64,000 nt of DNA from Eledone cirrhosa (GCA_964016885.1 OZ024743.1:344782001-344846000), one strand, 5' to 3'; positions 47,727 to 50,258 are shown, counted from the stretch's first letter. Numbers and translations: made by a program. The notes: generated from the sequence alone by a model not told the origin.

Positions 47727-50258
47727 TTGGCAGTATCGGTGGAGCGTCAGACACCATGCTTTGCAGCATAGAGTTATGGCCCTTTACATTCAGTGTTCAA
47801 ATACCGTCGAGGATAACTTTGCCTTTCATACTTACGCGGTCGATAAAATAAAGCACCAGTAATGCACTGAGGGTAATTGCTGGTATTATGCCAAAAGTAG
47901 AAACAATAATTATATATCATGTTATGTTACATTATATTATGATTGGCAGTATCAATAGAGGGTCGGACGACATGCTTTGACGCATAGAGTTACGCCCCTT
48001 GCCATTCTGAGTTCAAATCCCGCCGAGGTTAACTTTTCCTTTCATCCTTACGGGGTCGATAAAATAGACTACCAGTAATACACTGGATAATTGCTGGCCT
48101 TGGCCAAAAGTAGAAACAATTATATTATATTCAGTAAGAGCGGTGGATTGGCAGTATCAGTAGAGAGTCGGACGCCATGCTTTGCAGCATACAGTTACGG
48201 TCATTTATGGTCTGAGTTCAATTCCCGCTGAGGTTTACTTTGCCTTTCATCCTTACAGGGTCGATAAAATTAAGTACCAGTAATGCACTGGGATATTGGC
48301 AGTATCGGTAGAGGGTCGGACGCCATGCTTTGACGCATAGAGTTACGGCCCTTGCCATTCTGAGTTCAAATGCCGCCGAGGTTAACTTTGCCTTTCATCC
48401 TTATGGGGTCGATAAAATAAAGTACCAGTAATGCACTGAGTAATTGCTGGCCTTGTGCCAAAAGTAGAAACAATTATATTATATTATCTATATATCTAAA
48501 ACAGAGAATGTCTGTCTCTCTGTCTCCCTAAAACTCGAGAACCACCCAACCGATTTTTTTCAAACTTTACACATGTAATACTTATGGTCCTGTGAGTGTT
48601 TTGAGTAAAGATTATTTCAAATTTTCAATGCCCTAGGGCGCGCATAAGGCGCCGGTTAGCGATCTCTCTCTCTTTCTTAGTCTGTCTTTTTAGATAGATA
48701 CATAGCTATAACGCCGCGCCCTTATAATATCTGTCTGTATGTCTGGCTGTCTGCATTACGACGTTATAAAAACGTCTTCACGAACCAAAGTATCGTCTTC
48801 CTGATTTCCTTCGGTTGCAATGTTTTTCGAAATATTTACTTCTGCGTTCACAGATTGATTTTTCTTTAGGTTCAGAAGATCCCGTTAAGGGTGAAAGCAG
48901 CGATTCTTTGCTTAGACTTTAATCTGTTATTTTAATATATATAGATATAATTATATATTCGTGTACAGATATTTTTGCATACACAAACACAAAATATAAT
49001 CAAACGTATTAATTTCACGAAAGCACAGACGGCTTATCGTCATTGTTACTGCCGATATGCCACCCAAAAGTTCCAATACGTTTGGCACAAAGCCAGCAAT
49101 TACATAGTCAACGGTTCGGAAATCACATGCATCACTGACGAGATTACTCTTACTCTACCAGCTAGTCTTAGCGTACTTCGTCCTGCTTTTAAGTCATGTC
49201 TCGAAGGAAGAGATACTTCATTGGCCGAAATACTGCGAAAGCGGCAAGAAAAAGAACAAGGCAAGCAAACGAATCGTCAGTGGAATCTGCTATTCGATGG
49301 TCGCAAGGCCGAGGTATTCCGTACTTCTCTGTACTGATTCAGAAAGGAGGCATAAACATGACAATCTATGTTTAGAATCCCGAGCAACGCCGGGCCATTC
49401 TGATAGTATTATATTACAGTGAATCGGCAGTATTGGTAGAAAGGTTGGACATGCTTTCCAGCGTAGTTACGTCCCTTTACGATCTGAGTTCAAATGCCGC
49501 CGAGGTTAACTTTGTCTTTCATCCTTACGGGGTCGATAAAATAAAGTACCAGTAATGTACTGAATAATTGCTGGCCTTGTGCCTAAAGTAGAAACAATTA
49601 TATTACAATGGTGCATTGGAAGTATCGGTAGAGGGTCGGACGCCATGCTTTAAGAGTTACGGCCCTTGCCATTCTGAGTTCAAATCCCGCAGATGTTAAC
49701 TTTGCTTTTCATCGATAAAATAAAGTACCAGTAATACACTGTGTAATTGCTGGCCTTGTGCCAAAAATAGAAACAATTATATTACAATATATTACAGAGA
49801 TTATTTGCTGTTATTACATTTAGTTTCAGGAGAGTTTTATCAGTAACATTTTGAAGCATTATTATTGGTGGGCGGTGGGGGGTGGATTGGCAGTATTGGG
49901 AGAGGGTCGGACGCCATGCTTTGACGTATAGAGTTACGGCCCTTGCCATTCTGAGTTCAAATCCCGCCGAGGTTAACTTTGCCTTTCATCCTTACGGGGT
50001 CGATAAAATAAAGTACCAGTAATGCAATGAATAATTGCTGGCCTTGTGCCTAACGTAGAAACAATTATTGGTGGATTGGCAGTATCGGTAGAGGGCCGGA
50101 CGCCATGCTTTCCGGCATAGTTACGTCCCTTTATGATCTGAGTTCAAATCCCGCCGAGGTTGACTTTGCCTTTCATCCTTACGGGGTCGATAAAATAAGT
50201 ACCAGTAATGCACTGGGTATTTGCTGGCCTTGTGCCTAAAGTAGAAACAATTATTATT
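47727..50258 (+). mobile_element. Cluster of eight same-strand SINE copies
   Basis: Copies at ~47727, 47941, 48138, 48294, 49418, 49614, 49880 and 50069, separated by attat/att spacers. Confidence 0.92.
48487..49406 (+). mobile_element. Non-autonomous Helitron
   Basis: A|TCTATATATCTAAAA...(ctgt)-rich 5' end; 3' hairpin cccgagcaacgccggg (49379-49394), then ATAG|T (CTAG variant). Sits in ATTAT repeats. Confidence 0.75.

Follow-up and report, generated by a model that had tools for sequence, protein, structure and literature searches.

The analysed window, the whole repeat-rich stretch of 64,000 nucleotides from Eledone cirrhosa (GCA_964016885.1 OZ024743.1:344782001-344846000), contains at least 18 copies of one short interspersed element (SINE), each of about 150-190 bp, together with several long interspersed elements (LINEs), and the presented results support a homology between the 3' tail of this SINE and the 3' ends of two LINE families assigned to the L1/Tx1 group. 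The SINE copies are approximately 85-96% alike, and 14 of them terminate with AGAAACA. The focal copy lacks a TTTT run, and its head carries motifs which we take, by eye and against the usual consensus, to be similar to A- and B-boxes of RNA polymerase III (Pol III) promoters. It is the second member of a dimer (48148-48472), in which it is joined to a tail-less copy. An older SINE subfamily is distinguished by about 27 extra bases ahead of the tail and by ends that are more variable after the stem of the 3' hairpin. The main SINE features are listed below.

47727..48472, + strand, head-to-tail array of four SINE copies beside a (TTATA)n tract
48296..48472, + strand, focal SINE copy of about 177 bp, which lacks a few bases at its 5' end and is composed of a head, a central body and a LINE-like tail
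48445..48472, + strand, 3' tail of the focal copy, homologous to the LINE 3' end: TGC (48445-47), TGGC (48448-51), loop CTTGT (48452-56), GCCA (48457-60), AAAGT, AGAAACA (48466-72)
48473..48487, + strand, (ATTAT)3 after the focal SINE end, a 14-nt exact repeat, although in AT-rich low-complexity DNA
21776..22184, + strand, SINE dimer (21776-22168) inserted as one unit, with an exact 17-bp target-site duplication
13089-13290, 13749-13955, 21776-21990 and 12240-12335, SINE copies of the older subfamily

The most prominent LINE feature is a 19-kb head-to-tail array (24065-42942), in which four copies of family A, 97-99% alike, and a fragment of its sister family B are separated by (TATC)n. Family C and a fragment designated D lie elsewhere in the window.

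24065..29789, + strand, family A copy 1, full length, ending with AGAAATA and then (TATC)n
29889..30138, + strand, family B, 250-bp 5'-truncated 3' fragment, stem 30114-17/30123-26, ending with AGAAACA, the best ungapped match to the SINE tail
30230..35915, + strand, family A copy 2, 99.4% identical to copy 1, ending with AGAAATA
35989..41620, + strand, family A copy 3, ending with AGAAACA
41681..42817, + strand, family A copy 4, 5'-truncated, with stem 42792-95/42801-04, AATAAA and AGAAACA, then (TATC)n
8440..11490, - strand, family C, 5' half with remnants of the first open reading frame (ORF1) and an endonuclease 59% identical to that of family A, 3' end absent
4925..5230, - strand, LINE fragment D, C-terminus of the second open reading frame (ORF2), 54% identical to family A, without 3' untranslated region (UTR), after which come ATT-rich DNA and a SINE

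The three 3' ends quoted in the original prediction, namely those of the SINE, of family A (42789-42817, with (TATC)n behind it) and of family B (30112-30138), are all present in the sequence where they had been placed. The stretch shared by the SINE and the LINEs comprises approximately 25-30 nt with 70-76% identity. A weight matrix was built from 13 of the 14 SINE tails (one was left out owing to a 1-nt deletion) and both strands were scanned without gaps; the end of family B was the top non-SINE site, with 20.2 bits, a value reached in 1 of 300 block-shuffled windows. The ends of family A, which have a spacer 1 nt longer and need a 1-nt gap, obtained no score in this ungapped test. In the gapped alignment anchored at the 3' end, the focal 30-mer scored 36 with copy 4 and 33 with copy 1 of family A, against a background maximum of 30 among 117,106 30-mers, and family B scored 30, which was equalled by 1 of these 117,106. 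When a GCCT-type SINE tail served as the query, both copy 4 and family B reached 33, as did 1 of the 117,106 background 30-mers. Shuffling the last 60 nt of the LINE did not reproduce the observed score in any of 200,000 trials, whether for copy 4, copy 1 or family B, and after removal of the terminal AGAAACA the observed score was reached by 31 of 100,000 shuffles for copy 4 and by 227 of 100,000 for family B. In the reciprocal scan with LINE 30-mers, the SINE tails ranked directly after the LINE ends. Moreover, a stem-loop-plus-end pattern, defined post hoc, occurs at 16 sites in the window, which are 11 SINE tails and 5 LINE ends and no others. Since the similarity is located at the last base of both elements, it is judged to be real and most simply explained by homology. 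The homology proposed originally is thus supported by the weight matrix, the anchored alignments and the shuffles, while the statement that AGAAACA closes all of these ends holds for the SINE, family B and two copies of family A, the other two of the four family A copies ending with AGAAATA. An extension of the homology further upstream was considered and rejected: the pyrimidine-rich stretch of the older SINEs resembles the LINE 3' UTR by eye, but the alignment and the anchored comparison support at most about 30 nt.

The position at which the elements end is informative independently of any alignment. The SINE stops at AGAAACA, without poly(A), and inserts at ATT-rich sites. Insertions belonging to 13 of the 14 tails were examined, two of them being treated as dimers, and duplications of 11-18 nt (at most one mismatch) join the flanks in 9 of the 13, as compared with 13 of 156 mismatched flank pairs. 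Eight of these nine duplications begin within 1 nt of AGAAACA. The clearest case is the dimer at 21776-22168, in which an older long-form copy is joined to a young copy inside one duplication that starts 1 nt past AGAAACA; other clear duplications are found at 4850, 56099 and 56667. Duplications inside AT-rich arrays are weaker, and a clear one was not found in four of the 13 insertions. The (ATTAT)3 behind the focal copy is likely the target-site duplication of the whole 48148-48472 unit and not an encoded tail. An encoded (ATT)n tail shared with the partner LINE was also considered and rejected for most copies, in which the bases past AGAAACA repeat the 5' flank. The (ATT)n tail described originally is better interpreted as the target site: in the focal copy the repeat is (ATTAT)3, and in the majority of cases (9/13) the repeat is a target-site duplication.

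In families A and B, too, AGAAA(C/T)A is the last sequence and poly(A) is missing, though AATAAA lies just upstream, and all five of their 3' junctions and all five of their 5' junctions, belonging to one array, are in or at TATC repeats. As regards transcription, TTTT is absent from 11 of 13 SINE copies, a feature of the sequence that is compatible with Pol III transcription. In copies with no T run a Pol III transcript would enter the flank, and the fixed end would then mean that the start of reverse transcription is set by the RNA sequence. We infer that the fixed, poly(A)-free end favours sequence-specific recognition by a partner LINE, whichever LINE it may be.

The 3' hairpin is a possible carrier of such recognition. 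Its middle pair is G-C in 13/13 young SINE tails and C-G in three distinct LINE ends, and the inner three pairs are kept in all 13 SINE tails, with two copies that have a stem change retaining G-U pairs. The stem position, the loop length and the GT end of the loop are also kept between families A and B, the 3' UTRs of which are approximately 73-84% alike in their alignable parts. The covariation score calculated over nine hand-picked rows was reached by 2 of 500 shuffles, a value which is not to be read as a probability. Folding within the LINE context yields the hairpin in most cases, often atop a lower U/A helix, and that of family B is the only one that stands out against shuffles (z -2.36).

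The protein-coding parts of the LINEs place them in the L1/Tx1 group, as judged from two ORFs, the combination of APE endonuclease, reverse transcriptase (RT) and C-terminal zinc finger, and the closest similarity to L1. In copy 1 of family A, ORF2 is open (26087-29524, 1145 aa) and comprises APE endonuclease, RT and zf-RVT; its nearest solved relative in the PDB is human L1 ORF2p (residues 7-857, E 7e-48), followed at a distance by R2 (E 3e-19). In copy 3, ORF1 is open (36209-37993, 594 aa) and contains a CCHC knuckle and an RNA-binding-domain-like part; the same copy has a patch similar to family B where its 3' UTR begins. ORF1 gave no Pfam match, and its look-alikes in the Atlas (0.89-0.92) carry zf-CCHC and ZCCHC3-type RNA-binding domains. 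RNA-binding domains and a CCHC knuckle are characteristic of Tx1 ORF1. The junction between ORF1 and ORF2 in family A and the corresponding site in family C carry GAGGTAAGTG, which we take to be a splice-donor-like consensus, followed by a pyrimidine tract and CAACATG at the start of ORF2. This arrangement is located at 26053-26089 (+ strand, and also in copies 2 and 3) and at about 9410-9450 (- strand), and is kept despite the endonuclease identity of 59%. In family A this junction holds the stop codon of ORF1, which alone separates the two ORFs, as both lie in one frame.

Among named sequences, the RT region is closest to an Argonauta hians protein (67% identity), which points to an octopus as the likely host, Argonauta being an octopod. 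In the RT tree, which comprised 32 rows (6 of 37 chosen matches were dropped for length) and included no named Tx1 and no vertebrate L1, family A and the Argonauta protein formed a group (100/100) that lay with animal and unnamed rows and apart from plant L1s. None of the database matches to the LINE proteins was labelled Tx1, and a tree of this composition cannot split Tx1 from animal L1. The original assignment to Tx1 is accordingly upheld at the level of the L1/Tx1 group by the ORF2 domains, the L1 ORF2p best match, the ORF1 look-alikes and the RT tree, and the Tx1 clade itself is likely, because the ORF2 is L1-like, the ORF1 resembles the CCHC type, and the elements target microsatellites as Kibi and Koshi do.

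Other elements in the window were considered as donors of the tail. Three pieces are relevant here.

5900..7154, - strand, Dong/R4-like element, labelled by eye from motifs, interrupted by (ATT)19 at 7024-7080
7183-8440, + strand, second Dong/R4-like piece, in opposite orientation, 82% alike in protein
15270-15900, + strand, degraded RT fragment, RTE-like by eye, without 3' end and without Pfam match

TAA repeats are the reported target of the Dong clade (PMC3812793), and the 3' end of the 5900-7154 element lies inside the ATT run of a SINE. The polarity is the opposite one, since AAT repeats follow the Dong-like element and ATT repeats follow the SINE, and the alignment score of 0-6 is at the background level. 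The Dong-like element was rejected as the donor on both grounds, and the possibility raised originally that a Dong 3' end would fit the SINE tail better did not hold. No 3' ends of RTE, CR1 or L2 elements were found in the 64-kb window. Contigs of bacterial and archaeal genomes, scanned with the C-terminus of ORF2 and with the pattern of the SINE tail, yielded no match either.

With respect to the SINE itself, the best reading of its sequence is a tRNA-type element with a tail probably taken from a microsatellite-targeting Tx1-like LINE. ARAGORN found no tRNA genes in the window, and Rfam gave no match at E ≤ 5 over 47700-50300, the region of the focal SINE. Neither these two tools nor motif searches of published texts and readable supplements gave a relevant match that would name the family, the groups considered being OK, OR1 and OR2 of octopus and the CORE-, Meta- and Ceph-SINE superfamilies. 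The octopus SINEs OK, OR1 and OR2 were reportedly described by Ohshima and Okada in 1994. Like the putatively tRNA-type SINE studied here, these elements and the Ceph-SINEs are abundant tRNA-type SINEs of cephalopods, and by description it may be one of them.

Several further features were noted in the window. A 190-200-bp element with a long near-perfect palindrome and a unique arm is present in three copies within TA repeats (16268-16460, 20046-20247 and 60017-60206). An element similar to miniature inverted-repeat transposable elements (18770-19121) has 72-bp terminal inverted repeats (96%) and TA flanks, and one arm of a 145-bp palindrome (59491-59635) recurs at 48868-48942. A weak tRNA match of 32.1 bits at 17921-17991 (+ strand) is the sole Rfam match of the window at the gathering score; it is missed by ARAGORN and is likely a pseudogene. 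A trinucleotide tract (CAC/CAT)n of 2.3 kb (51624-53946) has long open frames on both strands, and a 362-bp direct repeat with 96% identity occupies 45630-45990 and 46162-46523.

Stringent pairs in which a SINE and a LINE share a 3' stem-loop are well described, e.g., UnaSINE and UnaL2 of eel, ZfL2-1 and ZfL2-2 of zebrafish, and SINEs of bivalves (PMC4176376, PMC4824008, PMC11481361), and a requirement for the stem-loop has been reported for zebrafish L2 (PMC4176376). The partners reported for mollusc SINEs are CR1, CR1-Zenon, L2 and Nimb (PMC4758252, PMC4824008, PMC10294476, PMC11481361, PMC5804259). The SINE studied here shares with the L2/CR1-type pairs a LINE-homologous tail, a predicted stem-loop with a putative compensatory change, and a short repeat instead of poly(A). 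It differs from them in the putative L1/Tx1-group donor, the shared stretch of only 25-30 nt, the stem of 3-4 bp and a repeat which is mostly target duplication. Among 58 surveyed SINE/LINE pairs, three had L1-clade tails, all of them in plants or algae, and L1 was proposed to be ancestrally stringent (PMC3472496, PMC3747384). These L1-tailed SINEs are ZmSINE2 and ZmSINE3 with LINE1-1_ZM, and SINEX-3_CR with L1-1_CR (PMC3472496, PMC3747384). In both the maize and algal pairs and the present case an L1-clade LINE shares its 3' end with a SINE of tRNA type, a putative one in the present case, and the maize hairpin has compensatory changes; the maize and algal pairs, however, end in (A)n or (T)n, whereas here the lineage is an animal one, targets microsatellites and is devoid of poly(A).

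The crocodilian SINEU, which has poly(A) tails, was linked to Tx1-Mar by its target, and no LINE with its 3' terminus is reported in the available text (PMC4494074). Mobilisation by the Tx1 clade, a shared target preference and tandem insertions are common to that proposal and the present one, but SINEU has snRNA (small nuclear RNA) heads, poly(A) and no shared LINE end, while the octopus SINE has a putatively tRNA-like head, no poly(A) and a shared 3' end. Kibi, specific to (TC)n, and Koshi, specific to (TTC)n, are microsatellite-specific Tx1 families (PMC4494074, PMC3812793). As far as the target is compared, they resemble family A in being APE-type L1/Tx1-group LINEs located inside a microsatellite, although (TATC)n is not among the targets of the microsatellite-specific families named in the accessible parts of these two papers. 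Table 1 of PMC3747384, from the marsupial rows on, has no Tx1 or cephalopod row and lists no partner LINE of octopus SINEs. Neither a Tx1-tailed SINE nor a partner of any octopus SINE was found to be reported in the available text of the literature searched, including PMC8967140, PMC9115989, PMC3531059 and PMC3787270, with Repbase, Dfam, SINEBase, Ohshima and Okada 1994, Akasaki 2010, and Kojima and Fujiwara 2004 lying outside that scope. The scheme of a common SINE/LINE tail is a known one, and what would be new is the unexpected donor from the L1/Tx1 group and the poly(A)-free ends at AGAAA(C/T)A.

Considering all of these observations, we propose, with a probability of roughly 60%, that the SINE tail derives from a microsatellite-targeting L1/Tx1-group lineage and that the enzyme copying the SINE in trans belongs to an ATT-targeting LINE of this lineage and would recognise the predicted hairpin and AGAAACA instead of poly(A). 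The process would begin with Pol III transcription from the internal boxes, with read-through into the flank where the T run is missing. By analogy with L2 elements, ORF2p would then bind the stem of 3-4 bp with its C..GU loop. Copying would start at a fixed point, the footprint of which is visible in the ends at AGAAACA without poly(A). Insertion has left its footprint as well: it takes place at ATT-rich sites, with duplications of 11-18 bp, and often inside the duplication of an earlier copy, which gives rise to head-to-tail SINE arrays in the same way as A and B form theirs in (TATC)n. The location of A and B in (TATC)n makes it likely that the partner is a sister family whose endonuclease prefers another target. 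On account of its 5' flank, an ATT repeat with the polarity of the SINE target, family C is the candidate present in the window; a Dong-like piece cuts this element off at 8440, and the 3' end is therefore absent.

A number of results weigh against this proposal. The partner's 3' end is not seen in the window, and the SINE sites are ATT-rich while those of A and B are (TATC)n, so that neither the target nor the terminal repeat is common to them. The shared stretch is shorter than the 35-61 bp (72-95% identity) of the bivalve pairs (PMC11481361), and the sequence downstream of the stem is variable among the older SINE copies. Built from the SINE tails alone, a covariance model gave 25 matches at E ≤ 10 and no LINE end among them. 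The model built from five LINE ends gave 15 non-LINE matches at E ≤ 10, of which 8 are SINE tails (out of 14); this counts in favour of the proposal, but the 8 had E values of 0.64-8, represent one family and leave out the focal copy. Covariance modelling, which had been suggested originally, thus produced no significant match between the two kinds of ends, and both models are narrow because they were built on near-identical rows.

The remaining objections concern the hairpin. The exchange of G-C and C-G, put forward at the outset as a compensatory base pair, is present, but it is one evolutionary event and as such does not by itself demonstrate selection on structure. Of the 4-bp stem quoted originally, the inner three pairs are constant in the SINE tails, whereas the outer U-A pair is present in 7/13, broken in 6/13 and absent in family B, which reduces the shared stem to 3 bp. 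Neither in the SINE (z -0.11) nor in family A (z 0.21 and -0.70) is the hairpin stabler than shuffles. When whole SINEs were folded, the pair probability of the hairpin was 0.00-0.20 in each of the 12 copies, as the 5' arm is drawn into an upstream helix (the cost being 0-6.3 kcal/mol), and the loss of about 27 bases in the young subfamily is what created this competing helix. On these models the hairpin is plausible, but in the SINE it would need a protein or a folding order to prevail.

This behaviour of the hairpin opens the way to another, unlikely, explanation, in which the tail is a relic and the SINE is copied by an RTE, CR1 or L2 element or, read differently, by a Tx1-like ORF2p that needs only AGAAACA and pairing with the target. 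The hairpin-independent form agrees with the predicted defeat of the hairpin in the young subfamily and with a conserved stem of 3 bp, although the constancy of the inner three pairs in all 13 tails, and the fact that the stem-loop part alone aligns above shuffles, speak for the hairpin. For copying by another clade, it can be pointed out that RTE, CR1 and Dong-R4 are listed as recently active in Octopus vulgaris, where a tRNA-CORE-RTE class of SINEs exists (PMC13282606), and that the RT fragment at 15270-15900 appears RTE-like by eye; the SINE, however, ends at the LINEs' own last base, with nothing added from another element. More improbable still is that family A or B is itself the partner, with the read-through SINE RNA carrying ATT from its donor site and priming on matching DNA. 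These two families are young (97-99% similarity of the copies, one open ORF2) and the only elements seen with the shared end, and a SINE without a T run in 11/13 copies would give a transcript that includes the flank. Such a partnership is opposed by the lack of (TATC)n after any of the 14 SINEs and of ATT after any of the five A/B copies, by the endonuclease being described as the main determinant of target choice (PMC4494074), and by the SINE copies (approximately 85-96%) being more diverged than those of family A. The lowest probability, only a small one, is given to chance or convergence, by which AT-rich ends that have a short GC stem but no common origin would look alike. The match is indeed short, the covariance model built from the SINE alone misses it, the two ends were selected for comparison once the similarity had been seen, and 1 of 117,106 background 30-mers equals the weaker scores. 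Against this, the matching stretch runs to the final base of either element in a window with only a handful of element ends, none of the 200,000 shuffles reaches it, and the Dong-like end remains at the background level (0-6).

Copying in trans by an ATT-targeting member of the L1/Tx1-group lineage remains the preferred explanation, and a wider picture can be drawn from it, to which we would give slightly less than an even chance: an animal L1/Tx1 branch may have retained the stringent recognition of a tiny hairpin, without poly(A), as its endonuclease diversified over microsatellites, one of its families now driving a major octopus SINE. If true, this SINE would be the first whose tail derives from Tx1, and it would provide an animal example for the proposed stringency of the L1 clade before mammalian L1 relaxed. 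With an end that is shared and free of poly(A), an animal L1/Tx1 lineage would fill a gap, and a minimal signal of 30 nt would be available beside an open ORF2. The finding would also explain the pile-up of SINEs in ATT-rich arrays, and it would point to what probably drives a SINE class which accounts for approximately 11.6% of the Octopus vulgaris genome (PMC13282606) and of which this family may be a major part.

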